Origin: an uncultured Candidatus Saccharibacteria bacterium
Lineage (GTDB): Bacteria > Patescibacteriota > Minisyncoccia > Phycocordibacterales > UBA5272
Length of the DNA stretch: 64,000 bases
Assembly (NCBI GenBank): GCA_964369115.1
Contig: CAYJED010000004.1
Span: forward strand, 16,428 to 80,427
Direction of reading: 5' to 3'
The number at the start of each line of letters is the position of its first letter. Positions within the stretch are counted from its first letter, which is position 1. Shown here one piece after another: positions 1 to 56,004 of this stretch. The notes beneath the pieces were generated by a model. That model was not told the origin of the DNA. It was given only the letters and a program-made list of their open reading frames with translations, and did not search any database. A program made the translations under genes and the position numbers.

Positions 1-863
1 TCGCTTGGTTTCAGCTTAATCAGGGTAATGCAAATGCTTACCGTGAAGCAGCTCAAAAAGCTGGTAATGCTATCTTAGGGTTTATGATAATCGTTGCTCT
101 TATGGGTGGTATTTTCTTTGCTATCCTTAGAATGGCAGGAGTAAAGACAGAGTATCTTGATATCTTTAAAAATATCTTGGTCACGAGTTTGGTGGAGCGC
201 GCATATGCAATTGATGTTATTGATGGAGGTGCCATGATGGCAAGTTGTAGTTTTGAAGATCAGCGTATTTTTGGTACTAATTGTACGTTACAAAGTGGTA
301 CCCAGGGTCAGCCTTGTGGATCAAATTACACGTGCAGGTCTGGTTTTGAGTGTAATGCTCAAATGTTTTGTGAGAAAACCCCAAGCACTAACCCAACGTT
401 TGAAGAAGCATCTCAGGGCGCACAGGCTCCAAGAGAAAATATGATAGGTGGAAGCTGTGGAAGAGACGGTATTTGTTCTGAAGGGGTTTGTGATGGTGCA
501 AGCAATACGTGTGTTAGAGGAGCGTCAGCACAAGGAACATCTCAACAACAAGCTGCAAATGTTACCGGTTCACTTAATCCAACTAATGTTACAACGCTTT
601 ACGACTTCATCCTTAATATTCTTAGACTTGTGATGCGTTTCTTTGTGTTTCCAGCTCTTATTGCTATTTGGGTATGGACTGGATTTTCTTTTGTCCTCGC
701 CCAGGGTGCACCAGAAGCGCTCGCAAAGGCAAAGAAGCTTCTTCTTTGGGCAACAATAAGTACCTTTATTATCTTTATGATTCAGGCATTTATGACAGCG
801 GTCAGGGGTACGGTGCAAAAAGTTCTTTCAGAAAAGACAGAAATTATAGAAAGACATCTATAA
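1..863 (+). CDS. T4SS-pilin-like (TrbC/VirB2-like) two-TM membrane protein with Cys-rich ectodomain; 5' partial (frame open to window start)
   Basis: The ORF is open from nt 3, so the start lies upstream of the window. The C-terminal half has two hydrophobic helices (FFVFPALIAIWVWTGF and LLLWATISTFIIFMIQAF) arranged as in paralogs 933..1619 and 3743..4144. A Cys-rich module ENMIGGSCGRDGICSEGVCD is shared with the downstream gene. Confidence 0.5.
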   Translation, partial: AWFQLNQGNANAYREAAQKAGNAILGFMIIVALMGGIFFAILRMAGVKTEYLDIFKNILVTSLVERAYAIDVIDGGAMMASCSFEDQRIFGTNCTLQSGTQGQPCGSNYTCRSGFECNAQMFCEKTPSTNPTFEEASQGAQAPRENMIGGSCGRDGICSEGVCDGASNTCVRGASAQGTSQQQAANVTGSLNPTNVTTLYDFILNILRLVMRFFVFPALIAIWVWTGFSFVLAQGAPEALAKAKKLLLWATISTFIIFMIQAFMTAVRGTVQKVLSEKTEIIERHL

Positions 864-932: not shown

Positions 933-1619
933 ATGAAAGTACTACTCCTTACCGCACTATTTACGCTCACTGTTACAACTGCTTCTGCTCAATCTGTTGC
1001 TACTTTAACAGGAGGAATAGGAACTCTTGCTGGACTGATTGATGGGTTCACAGGAAAGGTAGTGCGCGCAACAGGGGGACTCTTTATGGCGCTTGCCATG
1101 ATTACCTTCTTTTACGGTGTTGTGGAATATATCTGGGGAGCGCGTCAAGGTGATGGTGATAGAGTAAAAAGAGGGAATGAATTTCTCAAGTGGAGTCTCG
1201 TGGCGCTCTTTGTGATGTTCTCGGTATATGGCATCATTCGTTTTGGACAAAGAATAGTTTTCGGAGATGCTGACGTTAGTCGTATTGTTATCCCTCAGCT
1301 TATTATGGGTGGAAGCTCTGGTAGTCCTGGTACGGGAAGTAACCCCGGTGGTTCTGTGGGTAGTCCTGGTACAGGGTCAGGGTTACCTTCTGGTCCAGCA
1401 GAAAACATGATAGGAGGAAGTTGTGGGAGAGATGGTATTTGTTCGGAAGGAACGTGTGACGCTGTAACTAATCGTTGTGTCCCATCTTCATCCGGAAATC
1501 CAGCTGGTCCAGCAGAAAACATGATAGGAGGAAGTTGTGGGAGAGATGGTATTTGTTCGGAAGGAACGTGTGACGCTGTAACTAATCGTTGTGTCCCATC
1601 TTCATCCGGAAATCCATGA
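933..1619 (+). CDS. T4SS-pilin-like secreted two-TM protein with two exact 38-aa Cys-rich C-terminal repeats
   Basis: An ATG at 933 follows a promoter-like AT-rich spacer. A signal peptide (MKVLLLTALFTLTVTTASA) is followed by two TM helices around the loop ARQGDGDRVKRG, then a Gly/Ser/Pro linker, then 2 x GPAENMIGGSCGRDGICSEGTCDAVTNRCVPSSSGNPA. Stop is TGA at 1617. Confidence 0.55.
   Translation: MKVLLLTALFTLTVTTASAQSVATLTGGIGTLAGLIDGFTGKVVRATGGLFMALAMITFFYGVVEYIWGARQGDGDRVKRGNEFLKWSLVALFVMFSVYGIIRFGQRIVFGDADVSRIVIPQLIMGGSSGSPGTGSNPGGSVGSPGTGSGLPSGPAENMIGGSCGRDGICSEGTCDAVTNRCVPSSSGNPAGPAENMIGGSCGRDGICSEGTCDAVTNRCVPSSSGNP
1392..1616. repeat. Exact tandem direct repeat, 114-bp unit x 2 (second copy 111 bp), coding for the Cys-rich module
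   Basis: 1392..1505 is identical to 1506..1616 by direct reading. Confidence 0.9.
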
Positions 1620-1819
1620 TCAGGCTCAAGTTCTTGCACACCAGGAGAAAGGTGTGGAGAAAATGGCATGGGTACCTGTGATGATGATTTCACTTGCGGG
1701 CCATACGAACTCTAAAATGAGAAGTATTGACAATTTATAAAAACCTTATATAATAAGATAAGGTAGGCCTGATTGTACTTTTTGACAAAGAAAACAGGCT
1801 TTTTGTTCTTAGACTTTTA

Positions 1820-3742: not shown

Positions 3743-4144
3743 ATGAAAAAAATCTTTACAACACTATCAATTATTGCAGGACAGTTTGCAGTAGCTTCTG
3801 CTCAGGCAACTATCACTATTGGGCAAGGAGCTCAGCAGGGGCAGGTTAACGGAGGGGCGATCCTCGGACTCCTTGCGCTTGCTCAGACTATCATTACTCG
3901 TCTTGTTCCATTTGCGGTAGGAGTTGCGGTGCTTGCATTCTTCTGGTTCCTTATTCAGTTTATTGTAAAAGGTTCTCAGGATCCACAGAAGCAGTCAGAT
4001 GCAAAAGCTGGTATGGGATGGTCTATTCTCGCGCTTTTCCTTATGGTGTCTATCTGGGGAATCATTGGTCTTATTGGAAGTATCTTCGGAGTTAATCAGG
4101 GAGGAAGTGTTCCAATTCCTGGTGTTCCAGTTCCAGCAAACTAA
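3743..4144 (+). CDS. T4SS-pilin-like (TrbC/VirB2-like) secreted two-TM protein
   Basis: Signal peptide, then TM helix (VGVAVLAFFWFLIQFIV), KGSQDP loop, second helix (GMGWSILALFLMVSIWGIIGLIG). Same core as 4172..4786 and 4789..5043. Confidence 0.55.
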   Translation: MKKIFTTLSIIAGQFAVASAQATITIGQGAQQGQVNGGAILGLLALAQTIITRLVPFAVGVAVLAFFWFLIQFIVKGSQDPQKQSDAKAGMGWSILALFLMVSIWGIIGLIGSIFGVNQGGSVPIPGVPVPAN

Positions 4145-4171
4145 ATATCTTAACTTAGGTATATATACAAT

Positions 4172-4786
4172 ATGAAAAAAGCGCTGCTTGCATTATGTGT
4201 TGTTGCTCTCGGCGCTTTTTTTGCACATGCTCAAATCCAACTTGGAGATGTTCGTGTAAACGTTGGGCAGACCTGTTGGACTATTGATGGAAAGCGTGGA
4301 TGTCGTAATCCTTCTACTGGACAGTGGCAGCAAGAAACAGGTGGAGGAAACATGATTGGAGGAAATACAAACACTGGACAGATTGGAGGGTCAGGAAGTA
4401 TTAATGGGAATCGTTTTGGTTTTGGAATTGGAGGAGGTTCTGCTGGAGGAGGGGGTGGTCTCGCATACGGGAGTCAGGTGTGTGCTGTAGTTAATAGCTT
4501 TACCGGTCTTGTGCGTCTCTTTGCGCTTGCGCAGTGTGTTGTGACGCTTTCTGTGCCACTTCTTGTTGGTGTTGCACTCCTTGCTTTCTTTTGGTTCCTT
4601 GTTGAGTTTATCTGGAAAGGTCGTAACGATCCTACTCATTATGCAAAAGCAAAAGTCGGAATGTTTTGGTCTATTGTAGCTCTCTTTGTAATGGTGTCTA
4701 TTTGGGGAATTATTGGATTTATTGGAGGAGTGCTTGGTATAGGGCAAGGCGGAGGAATGCCAGGGTTTAGACTTCCAGGTGAATAG
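4172..4786 (+). CDS. T4SS-pilin-like secreted two-TM protein with Gly-rich ectodomain
   Basis: Signal peptide, Gly-rich stretch (GGNMIGGNTNTGQIGGSGSINGNRFGFGIGGGSAGGGGG), then the conserved core LAFFWFLVEFIWKGRNDP...GMFWSIVALFVMVSIWGIIGFIG. Confidence 0.55.
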   Translation: MKKALLALCVVALGAFFAHAQIQLGDVRVNVGQTCWTIDGKRGCRNPSTGQWQQETGGGNMIGGNTNTGQIGGSGSINGNRFGFGIGGGSAGGGGGLAYGSQVCAVVNSFTGLVRLFALAQCVVTLSVPLLVGVALLAFFWFLVEFIWKGRNDPTHYAKAKVGMFWSIVALFVMVSIWGIIGFIGGVLGIGQGGGMPGFRLPGE

Positions 4787-13877: not shown

Positions 13878-13937
13878 AATGTTTATAAAAGATATTAACT
13901 GGTAAGTAGTATGTGGTGACTATATACTACAAAGTAT

Positions 13938-14804
13938 ATGCATTCACTTACTGACGTAGAAGTAGAAGCGCTTACGCTTCGCGCTGAAGATATTCGAGAA
14001 AGTATTATTAAAATGCTTATGGAAGCAGGGAGCGGACATACTGCAGGGCCACTCGGTATGACAGATGTTTTTACACTCCTCTATTTTAGAGTACTTAAAC
14101 ACAATCCGCGACATCCTGAATGGATTGAGCGCGACAGAGTTATTCTTTCTAATGGTCATATTGCGCCGGTTCTGTACGCTACCATGGCTCACGCTGGGTA
14201 TTTTTCTATCTCTGAACTCAAAACACTTCGTCGTTTTGGTTCACGTCTTCAGGGGCACCCGCACCGTGAGATGCTTCCTGGCCTTGAAACTTCATCAGGA
14301 CCTCTTGGGTCAGGTCTTTCTCAGGCAATTGGTATGGCTCTTATGGATAAGCTTGAGGAGCATAAGCCAGACAGACACTTTTATTGCCTTATGGGTGATG
14401 GAGAAATTAATGAAGGGCAGATGTGGGAATCGTTTCTCCTTCTCAATAAGTACAAGCTAAATAAAGTTATTTCTATTATTGATCGTAATACAATTCAAAT
14501 TGATGGCTATACAGAAGACGTCCTTCCTCTTGAGTCTTTAACTGCAAAAATGGAAGCATTTAATTTTCAGGTAATTGATGTAGATGGTCATAATTTTAGA
14601 GATATTATGCAAGCAATTGGTCGTGCAAAAAGCACCCTTGATAAACCTACGGTTATCATCGCACACACAATCCCAGGTAAGGGAGTTACTGCTTTTGAAG
14701 GTGACTATAGATGGCACGGTAAAGCTCCCAACGAAGAAGAGGGTCGTGCTGCACTTAAAGAGCTTCGAAGTCTTAAAGGTAAAGTTCACTACGGAGAATT
14801 ATAA
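13938..14804 (+). CDS. transketolase, N-terminal (thiamine-diphosphate binding) subunit
   Basis: GHTAGPLGMTD, GDGEINEGQMWE and SNGH.. motifs. At 288 aa it covers only the N-terminal half of a fused transketolase. Confidence 0.85.
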   Translation: MHSLTDVEVEALTLRAEDIRESIIKMLMEAGSGHTAGPLGMTDVFTLLYFRVLKHNPRHPEWIERDRVILSNGHIAPVLYATMAHAGYFSISELKTLRRFGSRLQGHPHREMLPGLETSSGPLGSGLSQAIGMALMDKLEEHKPDRHFYCLMGDGEINEGQMWESFLLLNKYKLNKVISIIDRNTIQIDGYTEDVLPLESLTAKMEAFNFQVIDVDGHNFRDIMQAIGRAKSTLDKPTVIIAHTIPGKGVTAFEGDYRWHGKAPNEEEGRAALKELRSLKGKVHYGEL

Positions 14805-14814
14805 TTTTTTATAT

Positions 14815-15801
14815 ATGCTTAGAAAAACAGTATTTACTTCTGAAGAAGAACAAAAAGCAACAAGAGAAGGTTTTGGTGAGGGTCTTGTGAATGCCGGAAC
14901 AAAAGACAGTCGCATCGTAGCTTTATGTGCTGATCTTACTGAAAGTGTGAAGATGGATGGATTTCGTAGCAAGTTCCCTAAAAGATTTTTTGAGGTTGGG
15001 ATTACAGAACAAGCTATGTCAGGATTAGCTTCAGGTGCAGCCGCTATGGGATATGTACCTTTTATTGCAAGCTACGCAATGTTTTCTCCTGGAAGAAACT
15101 GGGAGCAAATAAGAACAACTATTGCTTACAATAATGTTCCTGTTAAGGTAGTCGGAGCTCATGCTGGAATTTCTGTTGGGCCAGATGGGGCAACTCATCA
15201 AGCGATTGAAGATATTGCAATTATGCGTATGATTCCAAATATGGAGGTGTACGTTCCTTGTGATGCGGTGGAAGCTCGTGCTATTACAGAGCATATTGCA
15301 GAGACGGATAAGCCTGCATACCTTCGTCTTACTCGAGAAAAAACACCCCTCCTTCTTTCTGATACCTATACATGGAATCATGGTAAGGCTTATGCTCTTT
15401 ATGTTTCTCAGCATAAGTACGGTGGAGATTTTACACAAAATGTTGCTATTATTTCTTGCGGACCTATTATTTATGAAGCTATTAAGGCGGCTATAGCTCT
15501 TGAGAAAGAAGGTATAGGGGTGACTGTAGTAAACGTTCCTCAGGTAAAACCTTTAGATACTGCATTTCTTCTTCGTCTTGTGAAAAATGTAAGAGCAATT
15601 GTTACAGTCGAAGAACATCAAGTGTCAGGTGGTTTAGGAAGTGCTATTGCAGAATATTTAAGCGAACATCACCCAATTCGTATTGGTCGTGTTGGAGTGA
15701 GTGATCGATTTGGTCAAAGTGGAAAAATGAACGAGTTGTATGAAGAGTACGGACTTACCGCAAAACATGTTGCTGCAAAAGTTCGTGAAGTGTTACATTA
15801 G
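14815..15801 (+). CDS. transketolase, C-terminal (pyrimidine-binding/C-terminal domain) subunit
   Basis: FEVGITEQAMSGLASGAA... and C-terminal domain motifs. An ATG at 14815 lies 11 nt after the N-subunit stop. Confidence 0.85.
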   Translation: MLRKTVFTSEEEQKATREGFGEGLVNAGTKDSRIVALCADLTESVKMDGFRSKFPKRFFEVGITEQAMSGLASGAAAMGYVPFIASYAMFSPGRNWEQIRTTIAYNNVPVKVVGAHAGISVGPDGATHQAIEDIAIMRMIPNMEVYVPCDAVEARAITEHIAETDKPAYLRLTREKTPLLLSDTYTWNHGKAYALYVSQHKYGGDFTQNVAIISCGPIIYEAIKAAIALEKEGIGVTVVNVPQVKPLDTAFLLRLVKNVRAIVTVEEHQVSGGLGSAIAEYLSEHHPIRIGRVGVSDRFGQSGKMNELYEEYGLTAKHVAAKVREVLH

Positions 15802-31794: not shown

Positions 31795-31945
31795 TGCTAA
31801 TCGATACTTCGGAAGAAACCCCGAGACGGAACCGTAGTTGTCGTTGGCATTGTCGACATCGTTGGTGTCGAACTTGACCTTGTCGTCATTGAACTTGAAG
31901 TACGGAGACTTCGAGAAATCGGAATCGGCATTCGGAGCTTTTACT
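31795..31945 (-). pseudogene. degenerate fragment homologous to the C-terminus of 32306..33202
   Basis: The minus strand encodes APNADSDFSKSPYFKFNDDKVKFDTNDVDNANDNYG, compared with APGADSGFSESPYFELIGVEVRFDTHVVGYAFDVYG in the intact gene. Nucleotide identity is about 80%. A stop lies immediately upstream and there is no start. Confidence 0.45.
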
Positions 31946-32305: not shown

Positions 32306-33202
32306 TCAACCTTGCGGAAGACACACCGAAGCCGAGCCATAGACGTCGAAGGCATAGCCGACAACGTGGGTGTCGAACCTGACCTCGACGCCAATGAGCT
32401 CGAAGTACGGAGACTCCGAGAAACCGGAATCGGCACCCGGAGCAAACTCGTCACCCGCACAGTCAATCCAGAGATCGTCATAGTGCTGGAGACGCTCAGG
32501 GTGAGTCAGGAGCATAATGCCGATGGCAAATGCACCCAAACCGCATTCATTTGCGTTCATTACTTCACGGGCACGGCGAACCGAGCGACCGCGATGACGG
32601 ATACCAAATTGTGCAGGTACCACCAGGATGTCCTGATCCTTTTGCTCGTCACCGAGCTTCTGGAAAATGGACACGGACTTGGCGGATTGACGGAGCTGAT
32701 TTGAACCAAGCTGACCTTCACGGTAGTTGTAGAACGCACCGTTTCTGGTTTGCTTGATCAAGTCGAACACTTTTTGCACGGCTTCACCATAAGTGGAGCC
32801 CACCTTTTCCCATCGTGGAATGGCGAACCATCCTTCGGCGTTTTCAGGTAGCGTAGCTTCGGCAAGCTTTTCATTGGCATAGCCGATACCAGGGAACAGT
32901 TCACGGAGTCGGTTGGTCTGCTCGGTGATACCCTTGGGCTTTTTGTAGCTCGACAGGTAACCGAACGTCGACTTCACTTCCTCGCCCTTGTACTTGTCGG
33001 AGACCGACAAGTCTTTGAGCGTCGCCAGGGCGACCTCGCCGATGTTGCCGACGAGTTCGTCGCCGTGTTCGATGACACGCTGTGCACCGTCCTTGTCGAG
33101 ACCGAGTTCGGTCACGATCTTTTCGACAGCATCAGCGATGAGGCGGTTGATCTGCTTGATTTGACCTGCGGTTGCAGGAATGACTTGAGTAATCCCGTTC
33201 AT
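32306..33202 (-). CDS. hypothetical protein (GC-rich, likely acquired)
   Basis: 298-aa ORF at about 55% GC; the antisense frames are open, as expected for GC-rich DNA. Confidence 0.45.
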   Translation of the reverse strand: MNGITQVIPATAGQIKQINRLIADAVEKIVTELGLDKDGAQRVIEHGDELVGNIGEVALATLKDLSVSDKYKGEEVKSTFGYLSSYKKPKGITEQTNRLRELFPGIGYANEKLAEATLPENAEGWFAIPRWEKVGSTYGEAVQKVFDLIKQTRNGAFYNYREGQLGSNQLRQSAKSVSIFQKLGDEQKDQDILVVPAQFGIRHRGRSVRRAREVMNANECGLGAFAIGIMLLTHPERLQHYDDLWIDCAGDEFAPGADSGFSESPYFELIGVEVRFDTHVVGYAFDVYGSASVCLPQG

Positions 33203-33728
33203 GGGTTATCTCTCCTTGTAAATGTTCAAACTCGGTTTACATTGCCGAAACAATTTGCCACAGATTGTGACTCCTACAATAATAGCATGAAAGTAGTAAA
33301 AAGTCAAGGTAAAAAACATAGTAAAAACAGCGTTTTTTAGACGCTGTTTTTACTTTCTAGCACCCTTCTCGTGCTAGCTGTTGAAGGTGAGCCAGTACTA
33401 TCTAGGGTGGAACACCATTGAAAACGAGATAATAAAATGGAAAACAGTTTTCAATAAGTACCCGAACCGACTTTTAGCACTAACTAATTATGAATAATAT
33501 CTATATTTTACAATCTTTTCATAGAAAAACCATCAAAAAGATTTTCTAATTTATATACCGTATCTGGTATAGAACTATGCATTAGTGAGTAAAATCAAGC
33601 AAAAACCTAACCTTGACATTATTGTTTACCAATGCTATAATATAACAACTGAACTAACCCTAAATGAAAGAGGGAAAGTTAGTCGGTGTATGTTACGAAA
33701 ACATACATGCTCATTACAGGAGAAAGAC

Positions 33729-34058
33729 ATGAGCCATTTCGATGAGAAGGACAACTTGTTCGGGCCTGCTCGCGCCTCCATGCGTGCACGTCTCGGCGAG
33801 TTCATGGATGTCTACATGGATGCCAAAATCAAGATCGCCCAGAAGCTGGCCGACAAGATCGCCGGCGAAAATGATGTCGAACAACTGATGGCACTCCGCG
33901 CCAAGTTGAACGATGTCATGTTCGCTGAAGATGACATCACCCAGCTGGATACGAAGATCAAGGCGCTGTTGGCGATGTTGCAGACGAACGCAACTGCCTT
34001 CATCACTCTTCGACAGCAGTGGAAGTCGTCCATCGAGGACACTCACGGCCGTCATTGA
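33729..34058 (+). CDS. hypothetical protein, high-GC gene within the AT-rich element
   Basis: An ATG at 33729 follows AGGAGAAAG. 109 aa, acidic and helical, about 55% GC. Confidence 0.45.
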   Translation: MSHFDEKDNLFGPARASMRARLGEFMDVYMDAKIKIAQKLADKIAGENDVEQLMALRAKLNDVMFAEDDITQLDTKIKALLAMLQTNATAFITLRQQWKSSIEDTHGRH

Positions 34059-34476
34059 GCCCTGTCCAGCTTCAAAAAAAGCCCTACTTCGGTAGGGCTT
34101 TTTTCTATACTAAATTTATCTGTTATAACAGAGAAATAACAGATAATTAGCGTAACTATTCCGACTATCTTTTTTGTTGTTATAACAACCAAAAAACAAC
34201 TATTTTTAGTAAAACTTTTTATCTCATTCTGATTGTTATAACAATCAAATAACAATTACGGAGCTGTTTACCAATTGTGATATAATACACACATAAACCT
34301 AACCCTTTCTATCACTAAAAAGGTATGGTTTTCAAAATCACGCTAAATGATAAAGATCTCCCAATGAGCTCTCACATTTAGCGTGTCGTATCTGGAAACG
34401 GATACGGGCCGGGTAACTGGCCAGAGGTTCGTTGGGAGTTTTTTGCTTTTATAAATAAAAATCACGCTAAATAATT

Positions 34477-34992
34477 ATGAGTACAAATACAAAAAAGATT
34501 TGCAAATACTGTAAATCTGAAATCATTTTGTCTGCTAAAAAATGTCCACAATGTCAGTCGGACCTTCGTAACTGGTTTGTAAGACACTGGATTATTTCAA
34601 TACTTATCGGACTTGTTGTTCTTGGAATAATAGGATCAGGATCAAACAAAAATACAACGACTGATAGTTCAAAAATACCGCAAGGATCAACTGAAAAACA
34701 ATCAGGTAAACAATATGTAGAGGTGGTGAGGTTTAGTGGAAAGGGTCAGAAAAGTTCAGAACCTTTCAAGATCAGTGGAAGTAGGTTCAAAGTTACTTAC
34801 GATTGTAAGGGTGACACCGCGACTACATATTGTGGAGCTTTTGCGTATAAAGTCGGTAGCAATATACCTCAAGGTGTTATGAATGCCACACAAGCAGTAA
34901 AGGATGAAACTGTTATATATGGATCTGGTGAATATTACATAACAGCTAACACAATGGGTGATTTTTCTATGGTTATTTACGACTATAAGTAA
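34477..34992 (+). CDS. zinc-ribbon membrane protein
   Basis: N-terminal CKYC..CPQC zinc ribbon, a TM helix, then an extracellular beta-rich domain. Confidence 0.45.
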   Translation: MSTNTKKICKYCKSEIILSAKKCPQCQSDLRNWFVRHWIISILIGLVVLGIIGSGSNKNTTTDSSKIPQGSTEKQSGKQYVEVVRFSGKGQKSSEPFKISGSRFKVTYDCKGDTATTYCGAFAYKVGSNIPQGVMNATQAVKDETVIYGSGEYYITANTMGDFSMVIYDYK

Positions 34993-35044
34993 CAAAAACA
35001 ATAACTCATTATCGTGGTAAAATACATATAAGTTATAGAACTTT

Positions 35045-35734
35045 ATGGACGGTAATGAGGACTTCAACAAGAGCACATATTGGGTACTTTCTGAACTCAA
35101 AGAAGAGAGTTTTGTGCTTTCGGATAACGATCAAGAAATAGAATTTTGTTTTGATGGTAGAAAAAGCTCACCAGATAAAAAAGTTCAAGATAGGGTGCTT
35201 CGTTTTCTCGAGAAAGAAAAAGCTGTTTCCCTTACAGCGTTTTATATAAAACCAAAGCCACTAAAAAACCTAACTAGAAATTTTGATACCTATGGGTATG
35301 GACCAATTGGATATGATGTAAAACTACTACAGCCGAGATTTGATGAACTGTACAATGAATATTCTGCTTTCAAGTCAAACAAAAATAATAAAGAGCAGTA
35401 TCAGTTCAATCTCACTATCTATCACGACAGAGGAACATTTTTTGTTGATGAGAAGAGAAAAATAGAATTCAGAAATCTTATAAGACCACTTATTATTGAG
35501 ATACTGTATAAAGCAAAAGGTAAAGATGTTGCTTCGGATAAAATAAAAACAGGGCTACAGAAAAAACTACTGAAAGATGGGCACGTTGATAATATCACAA
35601 GTATCATTGACGATATGCGCAAGAGTATAAAAAAGCACCTAAAGATAGATCCTAAAATAGTTCTACCTGATGGTGTTTCTGGTCCTGGTTACAGAATTGG
35701 AGATATCGAAATCAATATTGTAAGAGAAAAATAG
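35045..35734 (+). CDS. hypothetical protein
   Basis: 229-aa ORF; no family recognised. Confidence 0.4.
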   Translation: MDGNEDFNKSTYWVLSELKEESFVLSDNDQEIEFCFDGRKSSPDKKVQDRVLRFLEKEKAVSLTAFYIKPKPLKNLTRNFDTYGYGPIGYDVKLLQPRFDELYNEYSAFKSNKNNKEQYQFNLTIYHDRGTFFVDEKRKIEFRNLIRPLIIEILYKAKGKDVASDKIKTGLQKKLLKDGHVDNITSIIDDMRKSIKKHLKIDPKIVLPDGVSGPGYRIGDIEINIVREK

Positions 35735-35858
35735 ATAAGACCTTGTAGGTATGGTGTGAATTATCATACTGAACAGCTTACTTTGTAACGGTTTCTGAAT
35801 TCCTATAAGGTCGTAATGGGTATGTAATAGGCCCATACATATTTCCTACAATGTTTTT

Positions 35859-36011
35859 ATGACGCTCGAAGAGTTCATAAAAACAATAGGCAAAGAAGCG
35901 GATGGACTATCTCAAGAAGAGATTGAGTTTTACTATACCGTAACAGTAAAAACCTTCGATATATTTTTTGATAGATACAAGAAAGAAAAAATGTTGGTAG
36001 CACACGGATAA
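35859..36011 (+). CDS. small hypothetical protein upstream of recombinase (possible directionality or regulatory factor)
   Basis: 50-aa ORF MTLEEFIKTIGKEADGLSQEEIEFYYTVTVKTFDIFFDRYKKEKMLVAHG. It ends 31 nt before the recombinase. Confidence 0.25.
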   Translation: MTLEEFIKTIGKEADGLSQEEIEFYYTVTVKTFDIFFDRYKKEKMLVAHG

Positions 36012-36042
36012 TTCATCATAAAAATGATAAAATATAACTATA

Positions 36043-37830
36043 ATGGACCAACCAATTTATGTCATAGGGTATGCTAGAGTGAGTACCCCAAAACAAGCTC
36101 AAACTGGTGAGAGTTTGGAGGCACAAGAAAAAGCAATAAGAAAATATTGTGAAAAGAAAGGATATGCCCTCTTTCCTGATAACAAAGTTTTCAAAGAGCC
36201 ATATTCTGGGAGTAATCTTTTCAGGCCAGCATACAGAGAAATACTAGGAATTATAAAGAACAATATACATTCAAAAACAAAGGTAAAATATTTAGTATTT
36301 TGGGACTTTGATCGTCTCACGAGAGGAGGTTCGGCTGATTATGATCAGATATGGAAAGATGTTTCTGAATATGGCGTTGAATTGAGAGATACAACAGAAA
36401 TAATTCAAGAGGAAGTAAATATTATAAAGGAAGAGTTTGGTCTTGATATTGAATATGGTTGGAGCACAGCCAGACCAAGTGAAGAAGCTGAAAAAACAAA
36501 AGCAGAAGACGCAAGGAAACATAAGCGAAAAATATTGCAGACAATGATAACGGCGGAGATCCGTCTAACGATAGATGGCTATCACATAGGAAGACCTGAT
36601 TATGGTTTTCAAAACAAAAAGATTTTTGTGGGCACAAAGAAAAAATGTATCCAGGAAAGATTTGAACCCGAAGCGGTATTTGTTGAAAGAATATACAAAC
36701 TTCGTGCTGAAGGGGTGCTTTCTGATCAAGAAATTTGTAACGATGTGAATACTTTAGGATATAAAAGTAGAACTTTCAATAAATGGAACAAAGACAAGAC
36801 AAAAGTGTTGAGTGTTTCCGGGGGCAATAAACTGACCATAAAGCAGTTACAAGATATGATCAAGCGTTTTACTTACTGTGGTGTTATCTGTGAACGGTGG
36901 ACCAAATATCAGCCGATAAAAGCAAAGTATGAAGGTCTTGTGACTGTTGATCAGTGGAATACAGCAAACAGAGGTAAGGTTCAATTGGAAATAGGAGACG
37001 ACGATTATTTCACTTTGCTAAAAGATGTAAATATTCATAGTAAGAAGCGTAAAAAATATAACCCTAACTTTCCTTTCAAAGGTGTTTTGATGTGTGAAGT
37101 ATGTGGTAAGGTGATGAAGGCAAGCGCTTCAACTGGTAAAAGTGGGAAACCTTTTCCGGCTTATCATTGTGGTAGAGGTCACAAAAATAACGGTATCCCT
37201 AAAAAAGAACTTGAAGATGCTTTCAATAATTACTTGGAAAAGATAAAATTCACTGATAAGTTCTTGAATATTTTTGAAAAGACAGTTTATCTACAATTCA
37301 GAAAGAGAGAAGGAGAGCTTGCTGATTATACAAGCAAGGCAAATATCAATGTTGGAGAATTAGAAGCGCAGAAATCTGCACTTATAAAGTCATTCCCAGC
37401 AGCAACTCACCCAGAGGTTAGAAAAGGAATAGAAGATGAGATAACTAAACTGCAAGACGAGATTGCTAAAGCAAGATCACAAAGAGATAAAATGGAGATC
37501 GAAGAAGCTGACGTTGAGAATTTTATTGCTTGGTGTAAGGAAACAATGGAACACCCAACAAAAATCCTTACAGATATTAGGTCCGAGCAAGAATTAGCGA
37601 ACACTTTTTTACTTTTCTTTGAGAAGTTTCCTACCTATACAGAATTAGTTAGTGGAACACCTAAACTATCTTTAGTTTTCAAGCTTTCAGAAGAATTCAA
37701 GGTCAATCAAGACCTGTTGGTGAGCCAGTACTATCTAGGGTGGAACACCATTGAAAACGAGATAATAAAATGGAAAACAGTTTTCAATAAGTACCCGAAC
37801 CGACTTTTAGCACTAACTAATTATGAATAA
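36043..37830 (+). CDS. large serine recombinase (attP-form C-terminus)
   Basis: N-terminal resolvase domain (IGYARVSTPKQAQTGESLEAQ), a recombinase domain, a zinc ribbon (CEVCGKV...HCGRGH) and a coiled coil. The last 37 codons are encoded by the left end of copy 2. Confidence 0.85.
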   Translation: MDQPIYVIGYARVSTPKQAQTGESLEAQEKAIRKYCEKKGYALFPDNKVFKEPYSGSNLFRPAYREILGIIKNNIHSKTKVKYLVFWDFDRLTRGGSADYDQIWKDVSEYGVELRDTTEIIQEEVNIIKEEFGLDIEYGWSTARPSEEAEKTKAEDARKHKRKILQTMITAEIRLTIDGYHIGRPDYGFQNKKIFVGTKKKCIQERFEPEAVFVERIYKLRAEGVLSDQEICNDVNTLGYKSRTFNKWNKDKTKVLSVSGGNKLTIKQLQDMIKRFTYCGVICERWTKYQPIKAKYEGLVTVDQWNTANRGKVQLEIGDDDYFTLLKDVNIHSKKRKKYNPNFPFKGVLMCEVCGKVMKASASTGKSGKPFPAYHCGRGHKNNGIPKKELEDAFNNYLEKIKFTDKFLNIFEKTVYLQFRKREGELADYTSKANINVGELEAQKSALIKSFPAATHPEVRKGIEDEITKLQDEIAKARSQRDKMEIEEADVENFIAWCKETMEHPTKILTDIRSEQELANTFLLFFEKFPTYTELVSGTPKLSLVFKLSEEFKVNQDLLVSQYYLGWNTIENEIIKWKTVFNKYPNRLLALTNYE

Positions 37831-38061
37831 TATCTATATTTTACAATCTTTTCATAGAAAAACCATCAAAAAGATTTTCTAATTTATATACCGTATCTGG
37901 TATAGAACTATGCATTAGTGAGTAAAATCAAGCAAAAACCTAACCTTGACATTATTGTTTACCAATGCTATAATATAACAACTGAACTAACCCTAAATGA
38001 AAGAGGGAAAGTTAGTCGGTGTATGTTACGAAAACATACATGCTCATTACAGGAGAAAGAC

Positions 38062-38391
38062 ATGAGCCATTTCGATGAGAAGGACAACTTGTTCGGGCCT
38101 GCTCGCGCCTCCATGCGTGCACGTCTCGGCGAGTTCATGGATGTCTACATGGATGCCAAAATCAAGATCGCCCAGAAGCTGGCCGACAAGATCGCCGGCG
38201 AAAATGATGTCGAACAACTGATGGCACTCCGCGCCAAGTTGAACGATGTCATGTTCGCTGAAGATGACATCACCCAGCTGGATACGAAGATCAAGGCGCT
38301 GTTGGCGATGTTGCAGACGAACGCAACTGCCTTCATCACTCTTCGACAGCAGTGGAAGTCGTCCATCGAGGACACTCACGGCCGTCATTGA
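38062..38391 (+). CDS. hypothetical protein (identical copy of 33729..34058)
   Basis: Exact duplicate. Confidence 0.45.
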   Translation: MSHFDEKDNLFGPARASMRARLGEFMDVYMDAKIKIAQKLADKIAGENDVEQLMALRAKLNDVMFAEDDITQLDTKIKALLAMLQTNATAFITLRQQWKSSIEDTHGRH

Positions 38392-38809
38392 GCCCTGTCC
38401 AGCTTCAAAAAAAGCCCTACTTCGGTAGGGCTTTTTTCTATACTAAATTTATCTGTTATAACAGAGAAATAACAGATAATTAGCGTAACTATTCCGACTA
38501 TCTTTTTTGTTGTTATAACAACCAAAAAACAACTATTTTTAGTAAAACTTTTTATCTCATTCTGATTGTTATAACAATCAAATAACAATTACGGAGCTGT
38601 TTACCAATTGTGATATAATACACACATAAACCTAACCCTTTCTATCACTAAAAAGGTATGGTTTTCAAAATCACGCTAAATGATAAAGATCTCCCAATGA
38701 GCTCTCACATTTAGCGTGTCGTATCTGGAAACGGATACGGGCCGGGTAACTGGCCAGAGGTTCGTTGGGAGTTTTTTGCTTTTATAAATAAAAATCACGC
38801 TAAATAATT

Positions 38810-39325
38810 ATGAGTACAAATACAAAAAAGATTTGCAAATACTGTAAATCTGAAATCATTTTGTCTGCTAAAAAATGTCCACAATGTCAGTCGGACCTTC
38901 GTAACTGGTTTGTAAGACACTGGATTATTTCAATACTTATCGGACTTGTTGTTCTTGGAATAATAGGATCAGGATCAAACAAAAATACAACGACTGATAG
39001 TTCAAAAATACCGCAAGGATCAACTGAAAAACAATCAGGTAAACAATATGTAGAGGTGGTGAGGTTTAGTGGAAAGGGTCAGAAAAGTTCAGAACCTTTC
39101 AAGATCAGTGGAAGTAGGTTCAAAGTTACTTACGATTGTAAGGGTGACACCGCGACTACATATTGTGGAGCTTTTGCGTATAAAGTCGGTAGCAATATAC
39201 CTCAAGGTGTTATGAATGCCACACAAGCAGTAAAGGATGAAACTGTTATATATGGATCTGGTGAATATTACATAACAGCTAACACAATGGGTGATTTTTC
39301 TATGGTTATTTACGACTATAAGTAA
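38810..39325 (+). CDS. zinc-ribbon membrane protein (identical copy)
   Basis: Exact duplicate of 34477..34992. Confidence 0.45.
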   Translation: MSTNTKKICKYCKSEIILSAKKCPQCQSDLRNWFVRHWIISILIGLVVLGIIGSGSNKNTTTDSSKIPQGSTEKQSGKQYVEVVRFSGKGQKSSEPFKISGSRFKVTYDCKGDTATTYCGAFAYKVGSNIPQGVMNATQAVKDETVIYGSGEYYITANTMGDFSMVIYDYK

Positions 39326-39377
39326 CAAAAACAATAACTCATTATCGTGGTAAAATACATATAAGTTATAGAACTTT

Positions 39378-40067
39378 ATGGACGGTAATGAGGACTTCAA
39401 CAAGAGCACATATTGGGTACTTTCTGAACTCAAAGAAGAGAGTTTTGTGCTTTCGGATAACGATCAAGAAATAGAATTTTGTTTTGATGGTAGAAAAAGC
39501 TCACCAGATAAAAAAGTTCAAGATAGGGTGCTTCGTTTTCTCGAGAAAGAAAAAGCTGTTTCCCTTACAGCGTTTTATATAAAACCAAAGCCACTAAAAA
39601 ACCTAACTAGAAATTTTGATACCTATGGGTATGGACCAATTGGATATGATGTAAAACTACTACAGCCGAGATTTGATGAACTGTACAATGAATATTCTGC
39701 TTTCAAGTCAAACAAAAATAATAAAGAGCAGTATCAGTTCAATCTCACTATCTATCACGACAGAGGAACATTTTTTGTTGATGAGAAGAGAAAAATAGAA
39801 TTCAGAAATCTTATAAGACCACTTATTATTGAGATACTGTATAAAGCAAAAGGTAAAGATGTTGCTTCGGATAAAATAAAAACAGGGCTACAGAAAAAAC
39901 TACTGAAAGATGGGCACGTTGATAATATCACAAGTATCATTGACGATATGCGCAAGAGTATAAAAAAGCACCTAAAGATAGATCCTAAAATAGTTCTACC
40001 TGATGGTGTTTCTGGTCCTGGTTACAGAATTGGAGATATCGAAATCAATATTGTAAGAGAAAAATAG
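39378..40067 (+). CDS. hypothetical protein (identical copy)
   Basis: Exact duplicate of 35045..35734. Confidence 0.4.
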   Translation: MDGNEDFNKSTYWVLSELKEESFVLSDNDQEIEFCFDGRKSSPDKKVQDRVLRFLEKEKAVSLTAFYIKPKPLKNLTRNFDTYGYGPIGYDVKLLQPRFDELYNEYSAFKSNKNNKEQYQFNLTIYHDRGTFFVDEKRKIEFRNLIRPLIIEILYKAKGKDVASDKIKTGLQKKLLKDGHVDNITSIIDDMRKSIKKHLKIDPKIVLPDGVSGPGYRIGDIEINIVREK

Positions 40068-40375
40068 ATAAGACCTTGTAGGTATGGTGTGAATTATCAT
40101 ACTGAACAGCTTACTTTGTAACGGTTTCTGAATTCCTATAAGGTCGTAATGGGTATGTAATAGGCCCATACATATTTCCTACAATGTTTTTATGACGCTC
40201 GAAGAGTTCATAAAAACAATAGGCAAAGAAGCGGATGGACTATCTCAAGAAGAGATTGAGTTTTACTATACCGTAACAGTAAAAACCTTCGATATATTTT
40301 TTGATAGATACAAGAAAGAAAAAATGTTGGTAGCACACGGATAATTCATCATAAAAATGATAAAATATAACTATA

Positions 40376-42091
40376 ATGGACCAACCAATTTATGTCATAG
40401 GGTATGCTAGAGTGAGTACCCCAAAACAAGCTCAAACTGGTGAGAGTTTGGAGGCACAAGAAAAAGCAATAAGAAAATATTGTGAAAAGAAAGGATATGC
40501 CCTCTTTCCTGATAACAAAGTTTTCAAAGAGCCATATTCTGGGAGTAATCTTTTCAGGCCAGCATACAGAGAAATACTAGGAATTATAAAGAACAATATA
40601 CATTCAAAAACAAAGGTAAAATATTTAGTATTTTGGGACTTTGATCGTCTCACGAGAGGAGGTTCGGCTGATTATGATCAGATATGGAAAGATGTTTCTG
40701 AATATGGCGTTGAATTGAGAGATACAACAGAAATAATTCAAGAGGAAGTAAATATTATAAAGGAAGAGTTTGGTCTTGATATTGAATATGGTTGGAGCAC
40801 AGCCAGACCAAGTGAAGAAGCTGAAAAAACAAAAGCAGAAGACGCAAGGAAACATAAGCGAAAAATATTGCAGACAATGATAACGGCGGAGATCCGTCTA
40901 ACGATAGATGGCTATCACATAGGAAGACCTGATTATGGTTTTCAAAACAAAAAGATTTTTGTGGGCACAAAGAAAAAATGTATCCAGGAAAGATTTGAAC
41001 CCGAAGCGGTATTTGTTGAAAGAATATACAAACTTCGTGCTGAAGGGGTGCTTTCTGATCAAGAAATTTGTAACGATGTGAATACTTTAGGATATAAAAG
41101 TAGAACTTTCAATAAATGGAACAAAGACAAGACAAAAGTGTTGAGTGTTTCCGGGGGCAATAAACTGACCATAAAGCAGTTACAAGATATGATCAAGCGT
41201 TTTACTTACTGTGGTGTTATCTGTGAACGGTGGACCAAATATCAGCCGATAAAAGCAAAGTATGAAGGTCTTGTGACTGTTGATCAGTGGAATACAGCAA
41301 ACAGAGGTAAGGTTCAATTGGAAATAGGAGACGACGATTATTTCACTTTGCTAAAAGATGTAAATATTCATAGTAAGAAGCGTAAAAAATATAACCCTAA
41401 CTTTCCTTTCAAAGGTGTTTTGATGTGTGAAGTATGTGGTAAGGTGATGAAGGCAAGCGCTTCAACTGGTAAAAGTGGGAAACCTTTTCCGGCTTATCAT
41501 TGTGGTAGAGGTCACAAAAATAACGGTATCCCTAAAAAAGAACTTGAAGATGCTTTCAATAATTACTTGGAAAAGATAAAATTCACTGATAAGTTCTTGA
41601 ATATTTTTGAAAAGACAGTTTATCTACAATTCAGAAAGAGAGAAGGAGAGCTTGCTGATTATACAAGCAAGGCAAATATCAATGTTGGAGAATTAGAAGC
41701 GCAGAAATCTGCACTTATAAAGTCATTCCCAGCAGCAACTCACCCAGAGGTTAGAAAAGGAATAGAAGATGAGATAACTAAACTGCAAGACGAGATTGCT
41801 AAAGCAAGATCACAAAGAGATAAAATGGAGATCGAAGAAGCTGACGTTGAGAATTTTATTGCTTGGTGTAAGGAAACAATGGAACACCCAACAAAAATCC
41901 TTACAGATATTAGGTCCGAGCAAGAATTAGCGAACACTTTTTTACTTTTCTTTGAGAAGTTTCCTACCTATACAGAATTAGTTAGTGGAACACCTAAACT
42001 ATCTTTAGTTTTCAAGCTTTCAGAAGAATTCAAGGTCAATCAAGACCTGTTGGTGACCCTACGGAGAGTCGAACTCCGCTTCCAGGCATGA
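40376..42091 (+). CDS. large serine recombinase (integrated-form C-terminus, reads into tRNA-Glu antisense)
   Basis: Identical to 36043..37830 for 560 aa, then diverges at the GGTGA core into ...TLRRVELRFQA encoded by the complement of the tRNA-Glu 3' half. Confidence 0.8.
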   Translation: MDQPIYVIGYARVSTPKQAQTGESLEAQEKAIRKYCEKKGYALFPDNKVFKEPYSGSNLFRPAYREILGIIKNNIHSKTKVKYLVFWDFDRLTRGGSADYDQIWKDVSEYGVELRDTTEIIQEEVNIIKEEFGLDIEYGWSTARPSEEAEKTKAEDARKHKRKILQTMITAEIRLTIDGYHIGRPDYGFQNKKIFVGTKKKCIQERFEPEAVFVERIYKLRAEGVLSDQEICNDVNTLGYKSRTFNKWNKDKTKVLSVSGGNKLTIKQLQDMIKRFTYCGVICERWTKYQPIKAKYEGLVTVDQWNTANRGKVQLEIGDDDYFTLLKDVNIHSKKRKKYNPNFPFKGVLMCEVCGKVMKASASTGKSGKPFPAYHCGRGHKNNGIPKKELEDAFNNYLEKIKFTDKFLNIFEKTVYLQFRKREGELADYTSKANINVGELEAQKSALIKSFPAATHPEVRKGIEDEITKLQDEIAKARSQRDKMEIEEADVENFIAWCKETMEHPTKILTDIRSEQELANTFLLFFEKFPTYTELVSGTPKLSLVFKLSEEFKVNQDLLVTLRRVELRFQA

Positions 42092-42125
42092 GAAGCCTGT
42101 GTCCTAGCCGATAGACGATAGGGCC
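42051..42125 (-). tRNA. tRNA-Glu (anticodon CUC), CCA encoded
   Basis: The reverse complement folds as a cloverleaf: acceptor GGCCCTA/TAGGGTC, anticodon stem CAGGC/GCCTG with loop UUCUCAU, T-arm CGGAG-TTCGACT-CTCCG, 3' ACCA. Confidence 0.7.
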
Positions 42126-45065: not shown

Positions 45066-45252
45066 TAAAGGTTTAGTTGTAGATCTTTTACTCCCCGCAT
45101 ATACAAAAATTCCGAGAAAGAATCTCGGAATTTTTGTATATGCGGTGTATGTGAGTTAAGTACCCACAGGTCTAGACCCTGTAAAGGTATTTTAGCATCC
45201 TTTTCTTACTCTAAAATATGTATGTGGGTCACTATTGTTTTTAGATAAAATA

Positions 45253-45924
45253 CTACATTCCAACAATCTGTATGACTAACATCGCTATCTTTTTCTTATC
45301 TTCATCTGACAAAGAAACCCTAGAACCTTCTAACCTAAAATTAAAATAATCATCACTAATAAGATAGGCACCGATAAACTCAGTCATATCTTCCAAGGTA
45401 TTCATACTAAGTAAACCAGTATCTCTATTTTGCCTGTGGTAAACATCCATACCCGCGAGACCGTTGCAAATACCTTTAATGTTAAGAAATGCATACAGCT
45501 CTATATATGGATGAAACTTTTCATCAATATCATTTGATCCATTTAAGAAATTAATGAGGGCTTGCTCGTATCCAGCTTGATTTTGAAAAACATGAGCAGA
45601 TTCATGAGCTAATTTAACAAGAAGTTGCTCTTTAGCGCTATCAACACCCCAACCGAAACTGTCTACATTCTCTCTACGAAATGGCATGGCACCGAGAGCG
45701 ATCTGAGACATTCCATTTTCAAGTCTTTTTGTACTTGATTCAGCACTTGCTTCATTAATACTAAGTTCTCCGTTTACCACAGAAAGAATTTTACCAACTC
45801 TTAATGAATTTCTACTTTCTACATTGAGTAATACTTGATCCATAATCGGGGAAAGTCCAGAGAATAATCTTCTTGGTGCAGATTCTTGTATTGGATTATT
45901 GCTTTTTGATTCCGGTGTTTTCAT
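45253..45924 (-). CDS. HExxH-motif hypothetical protein (putative metallopeptidase-like)
   Basis: LAHESAHVF motif. Flanked by about 70-bp imperfect direct repeats. Confidence 0.4.
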   Translation of the reverse strand: MKTPESKSNNPIQESAPRRLFSGLSPIMDQVLLNVESRNSLRVGKILSVVNGELSINEASAESSTKRLENGMSQIALGAMPFRRENVDSFGWGVDSAKEQLLVKLAHESAHVFQNQAGYEQALINFLNGSNDIDEKFHPYIELYAFLNIKGICNGLAGMDVYHRQNRDTGLLSMNTLEDMTEFIGAYLISDDYFNFRLEGSRVSLSDEDKKKIAMLVIQIVGM

Positions 45925-46074
45925 AAATTATGTATCTGGGTCACTCCGATACTTTTTTATTTTTGCGGTGTATGTGAGTTAAGTACCCACGGTCTTAAGT
46001 GTTATAAGGCTATTTTAGCACTTTTTCTCTATGGATGCTAAGGCAAGTGAGTCGGGTATTCCAAATGCCAACAA

Positions 46075-51219: not shown

Positions 51220-51669
51220 TTAGATAAAAATCATTAGCAATATACCGACTAGGAATAATGTAAGTGCTTGTTTGTAATCCTTGTTCTTGCCTTCCAAAGC
51301 TTTTGAATTATCATCAAACGCTTTTTGATAATCTGAGAGTAATTGATCTAAAAGGGTTTCAGTTTTCATTGAACGATAATCTTTTGGATCATTATAAAAA
51401 TCCACTACGCCCGTATTATATGTTTTAACTTTCAATGTTTGCCAAAGGAAATATCCAGAAAAGAGCAGAATCATTATCGGTATTACTTGAAGAGCATGGA
51501 TATGATGAAAACTTTGTATGTAGAAAATGAGAATAGCTCCCTCTAGTGGAATCATTACTCCTGCTTTTGCATCAAGTCCGTTATCGGCATTGAGTAAATA
51601 ATCAACCTTGCTTCTTGTTGCATTTACAAGTATTTCTAGTGATTTGGTTTTGTCTTCATGCTCGGTCAT
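51220..51669 (-). CDS. small membrane protein co-transcribed downstream of Type III res
   Basis: 149 aa with two central TM helices and one C-terminal TM helix. Its start overlaps the res stop by 4 nt. Confidence 0.4.
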   Translation of the reverse strand: MTEHEDKTKSLEILVNATRSKVDYLLNADNGLDAKAGVMIPLEGAILIFYIQSFHHIHALQVIPIMILLFSGYFLWQTLKVKTYNTGVVDFYNDPKDYRSMKTETLLDQLLSDYQKAFDDNSKALEGKNKDYKQALTLFLVGILLMIFI

Positions 51670-55700: not shown

Positions 55701-56004
55701 AGGGGTACAGTTCTATGTCTCGGCTATCCATATTTGGTTTGTATAGAAACGGCAAAGAGGGACAGCCGAGCCTGTACCCCATAATGGTGCTACCCCGAAA
55801 GGTTCCTGTTATGGAACTCGGACTGCCCCTCTTTGCCTATAACAGGTAAGAGAAAACAGTCCTTTCGGGGACGAAGCACTAAATATATAAACACTATGGG
55901 GTACAAATGAACTCTAACATAAAAACACCTCTAAATAAAGGCTTATTTAGAGGTGTTTACCAACAGTCTGGACTTTGCGAGTGCTTCGCGTCATTTAATA
56001 GTAT

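Follow-up and report, generated by a model that had tools for sequence, protein, structure and literature searches.

A duplicated cysteine module and a probable nonsense truncation in a pilin-like gene of a Paceibacteria-type bacterium

Whether an in-frame TGA is a working stop, a leaky stop or a sense codon is the question raised by a pilin-like gene at 933-1619 of a 64,000-nucleotide stretch of contig CAYJED010000004.1; this whole stretch is called the window here. The host is a Paceibacteria-type bacterium of the candidate phyla radiation (CPR), and the gene product ends in two identical four-cysteine modules (module A), which are followed by the TGA. Behind this codon, the same frame runs on through a further cysteine-rich segment, the tail, until it reaches a TAA. 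The answer that we consider highly probable is that the cysteine module was duplicated and that a different, terminal module was lost by a change of GGA to TGA, i.e., by ordinary micro-evolution and not by recoding.

The repeat, the stop codon and the tail

Tandem Repeats Finder reported an array at 1390-1616 with a period of 114, 2.0 copies, 100% matches and no indels. In a base-by-base comparison, the exact run at an offset of 114 comprises 113 pairs (1390-1502 versus 1504-1616), that is, two full units minus one base, and it is bounded by the mismatched pairs T1389/G1503 and G1503/T1617. A repeat finder also recovered these two copies. The exact 114-bp tandem repeat described in the original prediction is thereby confirmed; in the phase used there, 1392-1502 equals 1506-1616, and GCT (1503-1505) stands opposite TGA (1617-1619). 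The junction between the units reads AATCCAGCTGGTCC. Translation likewise agreed with the prediction in that the TGA is in frame with the open reading frame (ORF) from ATG 933 and is followed by 31 in-frame codons (translated in Table 1) up to the TAA.

The tail had been regarded as a third, degenerate copy of the repeated module that reproduces its cysteine spacing, and this part of the prediction did not hold. The repeat unit is spaced C-x5-C-x4-C-x6-C and the tail C-x5-C-x7-C-x5-C, and BLASTP of the unit against the tail gave an E value of 1.1. The relatives of the tail are found in two more distant proteins, P0004 (222 amino acids, on nine Logan contigs) and P0003 (243 amino acids, on one JGI contig), both about 60% identical to the gene product by BLASTP. 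Each contains a single module A and then, without an intervening stop, a contiguous module of a second type (module B); the C-terminal part reads ...CVSSPATGGGSGSSYKCTPGYECGENGAGICDDDGVTCRMSI in P0004 and ...CVASSGNTGGSGGSSYRCTPGSDCGTNGAGVCDDDGRTC...CYEL in P0003. The tail, which includes the peptide stretches CTPGER and CGENGMGTCDDDFTCGPYEL, matches the terminal module of P0004 with an E value of 4e-9 and 18/24 identical positions and P0003 with an E value of 9e-8 (BLASTP), and it has the final YEL and the TAA stop in common with P0003.

The locus of P0004 (L002) and the window share a gene order of a methyltransferase, a large pilin paralogue, the orthologue of 933-1619, small membrane proteins, three pilin paralogues and prolyl-tRNA synthetase (ProRS). 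Since this order matches and the flanks of L002 are 92-95% identical to the window at the nucleotide level, P0004 can be regarded as the orthologue in a sister species. Owing to the matches with the terminal module of these orthologues, and to the E value of only 1.1 between repeat unit and tail, the tail is identified as the ancestral C-terminal module B, and not as a degenerate third repeat copy.

The codons at the stop site are GGA AAT CCA TGA TCA in the window, GGA AAT ACA GGA GGA in the outgroup locus L011 and ACT GGA GGA GGC in L002. Both outgroup orthologues thus carry GGA (Gly), within a Gly-rich linker, opposite the TGA, so that a single G-to-T change suffices to create the stop. A nonsense mutation that truncates a longer multi-module protein, one of the two readings first offered, is borne out by these syntenic orthologues, which read through with GGA into the homologue of the tail. 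Between the tail and module B of L002, the ratio of nonsynonymous to synonymous divergence (dN/dS, Nei-Gojobori) is 0.15; this value shows no more than that the frame remained coding during almost the entire time of divergence, which fits a recent mutation. In addition, the promoter downstream of the gene (1727-1754) begins 12 nt past the ancestral TAA, so that the tail takes up exactly the room that the old C-terminus had, and a similar TTGACA...TATAAT is found shortly 3' of the real stop in the orthologous locus.

The comparison with homologues has two sides. On the one side, six protein variants of close homologues end at the same position as the window gene; on the other, the cysteine-rich tail is kept in the DNA of all six contigs that reach it and is translated in the distant homologues. 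Among 68 homologues found by database search, the module-B type (C.PG..C...G.G.C....C) occurs near the C-terminus in 8, and because the other 60 are without it, the truncated protein is probably still functional. Two further ORFs at this site were considered and rejected, namely a 132-amino-acid antisense ORF (1295-1693), which is a mirror image of the repeat and without support as a gene, and a separate small ORF inside the tail, whose sole in-frame ATG would yield 15 residues.

Seven conspecific contigs were compared, i.e., the window and six others (L001, L014, L016, L017, L018, and L019) obtained from cluster members and a metagenome scan. They derive from at least six assemblies of NCBI and JGI and from different samples; four of the alleles came via the cluster list, and flank identity to the window is 98.8-99.95%. 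Each of the seven contigs has the TGA, and all six protein variants end at the same residue. Two identical units are found in the window and L016, a single unit in L014, L017, and L018, and two distinguishable units in L001 and L019; in these two contigs, unit 1 is set apart by three substitutions and a complex indel (in L001, the differences between the units are A->G, G->A, G->A, and the complex indel). L016 and L014 show 0 mismatches in 2547 flanking bases, yet they contain 2 and 1 units, respectively, which reflects either a real polymorphism or an exact repeat that the assembler collapsed. Within the limits of assembly data, otherwise identical contigs with 1 or 2 units agree with the ongoing expansion and contraction that had been suspected. 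The tail itself exists in two haplotypes, which differ only by TAC->TAA (L001, L019), a change by which the conserved YEL is lost; this haplotype has also undergone a change from CCA (Pro) to TCA (Ser) in the codon preceding the TGA. L018 (JAHZTN010118955.1) ends inside the tail, 7 nt past the TGA, which fits a break in the assembly graph caused by repeat-number or strain variation at the locus.

This break would also be compatible with an artefact of sequencing (a base-call error at the TGA) or of assembly (an assembler loop at the exact repeat); assemblers err at exact repeats, and the window holds two more exact tandem duplications (4333 and 3369 bp). Against this, the TGA recurs in the seven contigs of NCBI and JGI assemblies from different samples, and the novel two-unit junction (CCAG joined to CTGG) is present in four contigs (window, L016, L001, and L019), in two of which the units are distinguishable. 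A de Bruijn assembler cannot create a junction that does not exist in a genome with a single copy, and the units of L001 and L019 differ; the two-unit state is therefore real, and an artefact is extremely improbable.

Decoding of the TGA

The stop codons of the window were tallied over 66 greedy, non-overlapping ORFs under translation table 11. TGA ends 11 of them (17%), including 9 of the 49 with at least 150 amino acids, and the recognisable genes which it ends are those of a Res helicase, a serine recombinase and a reverse transcriptase; it is thus not the rare stop that the first inspection had taken it for. ORFs of at least 80 amino acids under the same table cover 83% of the window, and the genes for ProRS, UvrB, GAPDH, RpiB, both transketolase halves, class II aldolase, malic enzyme, TGT and MnmA are unbroken. 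The tRNA-Trp has the anticodon CCA and not UCA, and neither tRNA-Sec nor tRNA-Gly(UCA) was found in the 64-kb window. Genome-wide recoding is excluded, and the earlier view that it was unlikely is upheld by the TGA-ended ORFs, the intact housekeeping genes and the tRNA-Trp.

Code 25, in which UGA specifies glycine, is used by Gracilibacteria and Absconditabacteria, both CPR lineages, and bacterial selenocysteine insertion also recodes UGA. The locus is similar to such systems in its in-frame UGA followed by coding-looking sequence, in its CPR host and in the orthologous residue, a glycine, as code 25 would insert; furthermore, a 6-bp hairpin (CACACC-N8-GGUGUG) lies 18 nt past the TGA. It differs from them in that UGA is a working stop here, with no suitable tRNA in the window, and in that homologues have Gly in the linker at this position, not Cys as is usual for selenocysteine sites. 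No Rfam match to a selenocysteine insertion sequence (SECIS) was obtained in 1300-1900 at E <= 10; the only Rfam matches in this interval are weak ones to small RNAs that are attributable to chance (ncr952 with 21.7 bits against a cut-off of 100, and Hrs1 with 15.1 against 56.4). The fold of 1600-1720 is no better than that of shuffled sequence (z = -0.47, with 61/200 shuffles folding at least as well), and the same is true of the 6-bp hairpin, so the SECIS-like element for which a search had been suggested did not emerge. Considering also that 11/66 ORFs, including recognisable full-length enzymes, end at TGA, the probability that the codon is decoded as an amino acid, be it genome-wide (Gly, code 25; Trp, code 4) or as selenocysteine at this site, is next to nil.

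Stop-codon readthrough was the second reading originally placed beside a nonsense mutation. In this case, the UGA at 1617 would be leaky by design, with most subunits ending after the second module A and a minority continuing into module B. The intact tail (four cysteines, no indel, ancestral stop kept), the retention of the TGA in 7/7 contigs and the length of the in-frame extension, 31 codons, which none of the other TGA-ended ORFs (11 in all in the window) reaches, are in line with this possibility. The codon before the stop specifies Pro in the window, and a Pro codon in this place slows termination in Escherichia coli. However, an intact tail is expected from a recent mutation anyway, given that the strain flanks differ by only 0.1-1.2%, and the sole tail change is itself a stop, found in the very haplotype in which the Pro before the TGA has become Ser. 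The fourth base is U, which in E. coli makes an efficient termination context and may do so in the host. No significant downstream structure and no Rfam match accompany the UGA-U, and a stop followed by an in-frame cysteine module was found in none of the 14 other pilin-like genes of the fetched loci. Readthrough thus received no support and is improbable. Somewhat more improbable still is its elaborated form, in which a leaky UGA gives a pilin in two lengths, a major form and a rare module-B form (e.g., a pilus tip or adhesin subunit); if true, programmed readthrough would thereby be described for the first time, both for a pilin and for the CPR. The recoding question is settled in favor of a young nonsense mutation, with no sign of an altered code, selenocysteine or a new recoding signal, and the tail is presumably untranslated beyond background readthrough.

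Order of events and what weighs on it

The truncation by a nonsense mutation can be placed in a proposed sequence of events. The ancestral layout, still present in the sister species, would have been pilin, linker, module A, linker, and module B. A clean in-frame tandem duplication of 114 bp (38 codons) would have converted it to A-A-B, with the duplicated segment including the first base of the next GGA codon. One G-to-T change, from GGA to TGA, would then have cut off module B, left it as a 31-codon untranslated relic and become fixed in the species. Finally, the exact repeat would have changed its copy number (a single unit, or two that are identical or diverged), and one haplotype would have gained a second stop in the tail; the one-unit alleles would be either contractions or assembly collapses.

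This order is suggested by the junction base. A clean 114-bp duplication gives 114 identical pairs and 113 are seen, so that position 1389, 1503 or 1617 must have changed after the duplication. Both outgroups have a TCN Ser codon at the site of T1389, which is hence ancestral, leaving G1503 or T1617 as the changed base. T1617 derives from G, and G1503 would be a copy of this G if the duplicated segment was 1390-1503 and the next codon was still GGA at that time; a duplication that came first thus needs no extra mutation. On these grounds, the duplication probably preceded the nonsense mutation, an order that is clearly favored, and the comparison suggests that a three-module A-A-B protein did exist briefly.

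The reverse order is unlikely, though it deserves to be weighed. Here, a one-unit gene that was already truncated would have duplicated 1389-1502, followed by a T->G change at the junction, and a three-module protein would never have existed. One-unit TGA alleles do occur on two different 5' backgrounds (L014 and L017/L018), and the units of the window are still identical, as in a very young duplication. This order, however, requires an additional substitution exactly at the junction base that is common to both two-unit haplotypes. The duplication with this same junction is, moreover, shared by haplotypes whose flanks are 1.2% apart and in which unit 1 has diverged (L001, L019), and it is therefore not very young; one-unit contigs, for their part, arise easily through contraction of an exact repeat or collapse by the assembler.

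Several observations weigh against the overall account, in which module duplication was followed by loss of module B. The order of events rests on one base, and the units of the window are identical although the duplication predates the divergence of the strains; this identity is due either to chance (roughly 10% by a Poisson estimate with ~1% divergence per lineage) or to gene conversion. The one-unit contigs could be assembler collapses and not real contractions. Variation of the tail amounts to 0-1 change in 93 nt, with 0.1-1.1 expected from a flank divergence of 0.1-1.2%, and because variation within the species is so low, relaxed constraint on the tail cannot be shown statistically; its four cysteines and the lack of a frameshift are equally expected if it is still translated. 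Additionally, the product of 933-1619 is assigned to the pilins by a sub-threshold score of a hidden Markov model (HMM), and Foldseek retrieved no solved relative.

A diversity-generating retroelement was considered as a cause of the repeat variation, as a reverse transcriptase is encoded at 62377-63480, and rejected; the units of the window are identical, the differences in L001 are not adenine-specific, and the reverse transcriptase is 60 kb away.

The truncation and the variation in repeat number have parallels among known surface proteins. Internalin A of Listeria monocytogenes is a surface protein truncated by premature stops that are fixed in a lineage. As there, a single-base nonsense change removes the C-terminus of a surface protein, the downstream frame lingers as a relic and the allele is common; unlike there, a small terminal display module is lost and not a cell-wall anchor. 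The alpha C protein of group B streptococci and the staphylococcal Sdr proteins possess in-frame tandem repeats that vary in copy number. The present repeat is similar in that its exact in-frame units each correspond to a whole module, in that their number differs between otherwise identical strains (L016/L014) and in that the same evolutionary mode recurs across the pilin family. It is dissimilar in having 1-2 units and no long arrays, and the one-unit state could partly be an assembly effect.

The pilin family and its genomic setting

The features of the locus are compiled in Table 1.

Table 1. Features of the pilin-like gene and its neighbors, in positions of the window (aa, amino acids; T4SS, type IV secretion system).
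Feature	Position	Strand	Remarks
Pilin paralogue carrying a copy of module A	84-863		Pilin domain at residues 170-239 (Pfam)
Copy of module A (ENMIGGSCGRDGICSEGVCD)	424..536	+	In paralogue 84-863, N-terminal side of its pilin domain
Present-day ORF, 228 aa	933..1619	+	Signal peptide, VirB2-like two-helix pilin domain, linker, two identical Cys modules, TGA
Pilin domain, residues 36-103, hairpin of two hydrophobic helices	1038..1241	+	PF18895 T4SS_pilin (below cut-off, see text)
Gly/Ser/Pro-rich flexible linker (GGSSGSPGTGSNPGGSVGSPGTGSGLPS)	1308..1389	+	From translation; equivalent stretch disordered in the orthologue model
Repeat unit 1 (module A, GPAENMIGGSCGRDGICSEGTCDAVTNRCVPSSSGNP)	1390..1503	+	Last base G1503 is the junction base
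Repeat unit 2	1504..1617	+	Equals unit 1 except for the last base; T1617, opposite G1503, is the first base of the stop codon
TGA stop, probably derived from GGA (Gly)	1617..1619	+	Aligned to GGA in both outgroup orthologues
Probable relic of ancestral C-terminal module B (SGSSSCTPGERCGENGMGTCDDDFTCGPYEL)	1620..1712	+	Now 3' of the stop
Probable ancestral stop TAA, after the conserved C-terminal ...YEL	1713..1715	+	L011 likewise ends ...CYEL + TAA
Predicted sigma-70-type promoter, perfect TTGACA-16-TATAAT	1727..1754	+	Would serve the next gene, 1832-2404
PF18895 paralogue, above cut-off	3743-4144		28.3 bits
PF18895 paralogue, above cut-off	4154-4786		28.4 bits

The N-terminus of the 228-residue product, read by eye, has the form of a Sec-type signal peptide, MKVLLLTALFTLTVTTASA followed by Q; an identical protein, P0001, is encoded on a 93-kb NCBI contig. 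The product matches PF18895 (T4SS_pilin) with 21.3 bits (E 2.8e-4), which is under the cut-off of 26.6 bits, while a match at E <= 0.01 was obtained for 30 of 66 scanned homologues. In the AlphaFold2 model of the intact orthologue P0004, the helices 29-72 and 75-110 form a hairpin with values of 80-91 for the predicted local distance difference test (pLDDT), and the linker is disordered (pLDDT <50 at residues 131-161); module A is of low to moderate confidence, and the last module is a fairly confident small beta-structure (pLDDT 82-85). A Foldseek search against the PDB yielded nothing at E <= 0.001 (the best hits, at 0.6, were unrelated helical proteins), a bare helical hairpin offering little signal; a profile search of PDB sequences gave no match, and neither did Pfam scans of the tail alone and of the cysteine modules. 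The sub-threshold HMM score and the topology, taken together, make it probable that the product belongs to the VirB2-like pilins.

In VirB2/TraA-type pilins, both ends of the mature protein face outward. By analogy, after Sec-dependent export, the two-helix hairpin would sit in the membrane or polymerise, and the C-terminal linker and four-cysteine modules would be displayed extracellularly and presumably be disulfide-bonded, the linker keeping the modules at a distance from the filament or membrane, where conditions would be oxidising.

Within the species, the pilin part of the gene shows deep allelic divergence. When the window was compared with L016, L017, L001, and L019, the 5' 447 bp (933-1379; signal peptide, hairpin, and linker) differed by 3.8-15% between strains, although the next 2.1 kb downstream differ by only 0.05-1.2% in the same strains. 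For 933-1379, synonymous divergence among strains is 0.11-0.45 and dN/dS 0.13-0.32, which indicates that these may be old alleles kept or imported by recombination and not the outcome of recent positive selection. The alleles are also mosaic, as P0069 joins an L001-type linker to a single module.

A 4.8-kb portion of the window contains four PF18895-like genes; five to six are present in L001 and L002. The paralogue just upstream of 933-1619 holds a module A copy that is 67% identical to the repeat units over 113 nt (repeat family D3), with a core (428-484) of 86-88% identity. Neither the large ORFs of the window nor the 10 kb that lie upstream in L001 showed a recognisable VirB4-type ATPase or other T4SS domain. 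Within the pilin cluster, single small genes are preceded by sigma-70 promoters that match the consensus or nearly so, a second one (TTGACA-17-TATTAT) being located at 2929-2957, and orthologous loci share such per-gene promoters; intrinsic terminators between the genes of the cluster were not found. Between the window and L002, the interval 1480-2752 (3565-4680 in L002), which covers the end of the pilin gene and the small membrane-protein genes 1832-2404 and 2420-2788, is too diverged for blastn, and in terms of sequence it would constitute a local hot spot of divergence or replacement between species. Among GTDB representatives, the nearest named relatives, which are distant, are one metagenome-assembled genome (MAG) of Candidatus Paceibacterota and one of Saccharibacteria.

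In Patescibacteria, VirB2-like pilin genes have been described in arrays of 2-11 members that diverge strongly from one another, with a mutual identity of about 25% (PMC12102498). The present genes resemble them in encoding small proteins, predicted to be secreted, with a two-helix hydrophobic hairpin, in the side-by-side arrangement of divergent paralogues (84-863, 933-1619, 3743-4144, and 4154-4786) and in the Candidatus Paceibacterota MAG as nearest named relative. They deviate from them in that the product of 933-1619 scores below the PF18895 cut-off, pilus formation being predicted at most, and in that no T4SS gene was recognised in the regions named above; a virB4 neighborhood is, however, not strictly required, since a pilin gene lies near virB4 in only 1135 of 1948 assemblies (PMC12102498). 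Moreover, a C-terminal Gly/Ser/Pro linker with four-cysteine modules does not figure in that study, in which a term search found 'cysteine' only in the context of VirB1 (PMC12102498).

Farther from the pilin cluster, the window contains several other repeats. A 4333-bp unit is duplicated in tandem (33386-37718 = 37719-42051), with no internal mismatch across 33386-42059. It encodes a large serine recombinase (Resolvase, Recombinase, and Zn_ribbon_recom domains), a LOOT RNA (Rfam RF03000, 84.5 bits; 34296-34422 and 38629-38755) and three ORFs without a Pfam match, and its right end adjoins a tRNA-Glu(CTC) at 42051-42125 (-). It has the appearance of a small integrative element of which two copies were inserted in a row at a tRNA gene, or of a circular form joined by the assembler. 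The second exact tandem duplication has a 3369-bp unit (55819-59187 = 59188-62556) that holds a 617-amino-acid minus-strand ORF without a Pfam match; its right boundary falls inside the 5' end of the reverse-transcriptase gene (RVT_1), and just to its left lies a Type III restriction-modification pair, Res at 51666-53960 (-) and Mod at 53964-55712 (-).

A 67-nt intergenic motif (TTTTTGTATATGCGGTGTATGTGAGTTAAGTACCCAC...) occurs at 45131-45197 and 45954-46020, 823 bp apart and 78% identical, flanking the ORF 45253-45927 (-); it has no Rfam match at the gathering threshold and could be a candidate small RNA or regulatory element. A 129-nt direct repeat (31810-31938 and 32315-32443; 80% identity, 505 bp apart) is situated in a region with raised G+C (0.46), overlapping ORFs on both strands and no Pfam match. 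Transketolase is present as two ORFs, 13920-14804 and 14584-15801, which overlap in the stop-to-stop listing; one has the N-terminal thiamine pyrophosphate domain and the other the pyrimidine-binding and C-terminal domains. As far as Pfam coverage shows, this is a split arrangement and no frameshift artefact.

The value of the pilin-like gene is modest. It is a clean case, open to dating, of evolution at the displayed end of pilin-like proteins in the CPR, in which module duplication, loss of the terminal module by a stop, change of repeat number and exchange of modules between neighboring paralogues are visible as steps, while the pilin part of the same gene has undergone deep allelic divergence. 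The junction base is a neat fossil detail, yet the finding is ordinary and no discovery. Across the family, the homologues have 0 to 18 cysteines C-terminal to the pilin core, with modules that differ widely in number and type, and tandem module repeats occur in 11 of 72 family proteins, including another exact 38-residue duplication in P0006. Because of this variation, the recurrent tandem repeats and the module A copy in the paralogue, we propose that the cysteine modules serve as movable units of display. Both the gene family and its arrays are known, but the cysteine-module extensions on these pilins may be hitherto undescribed; in organisms whose life is spent attached to other cells, they are the likeliest surface of contact and may merit a description of their own.

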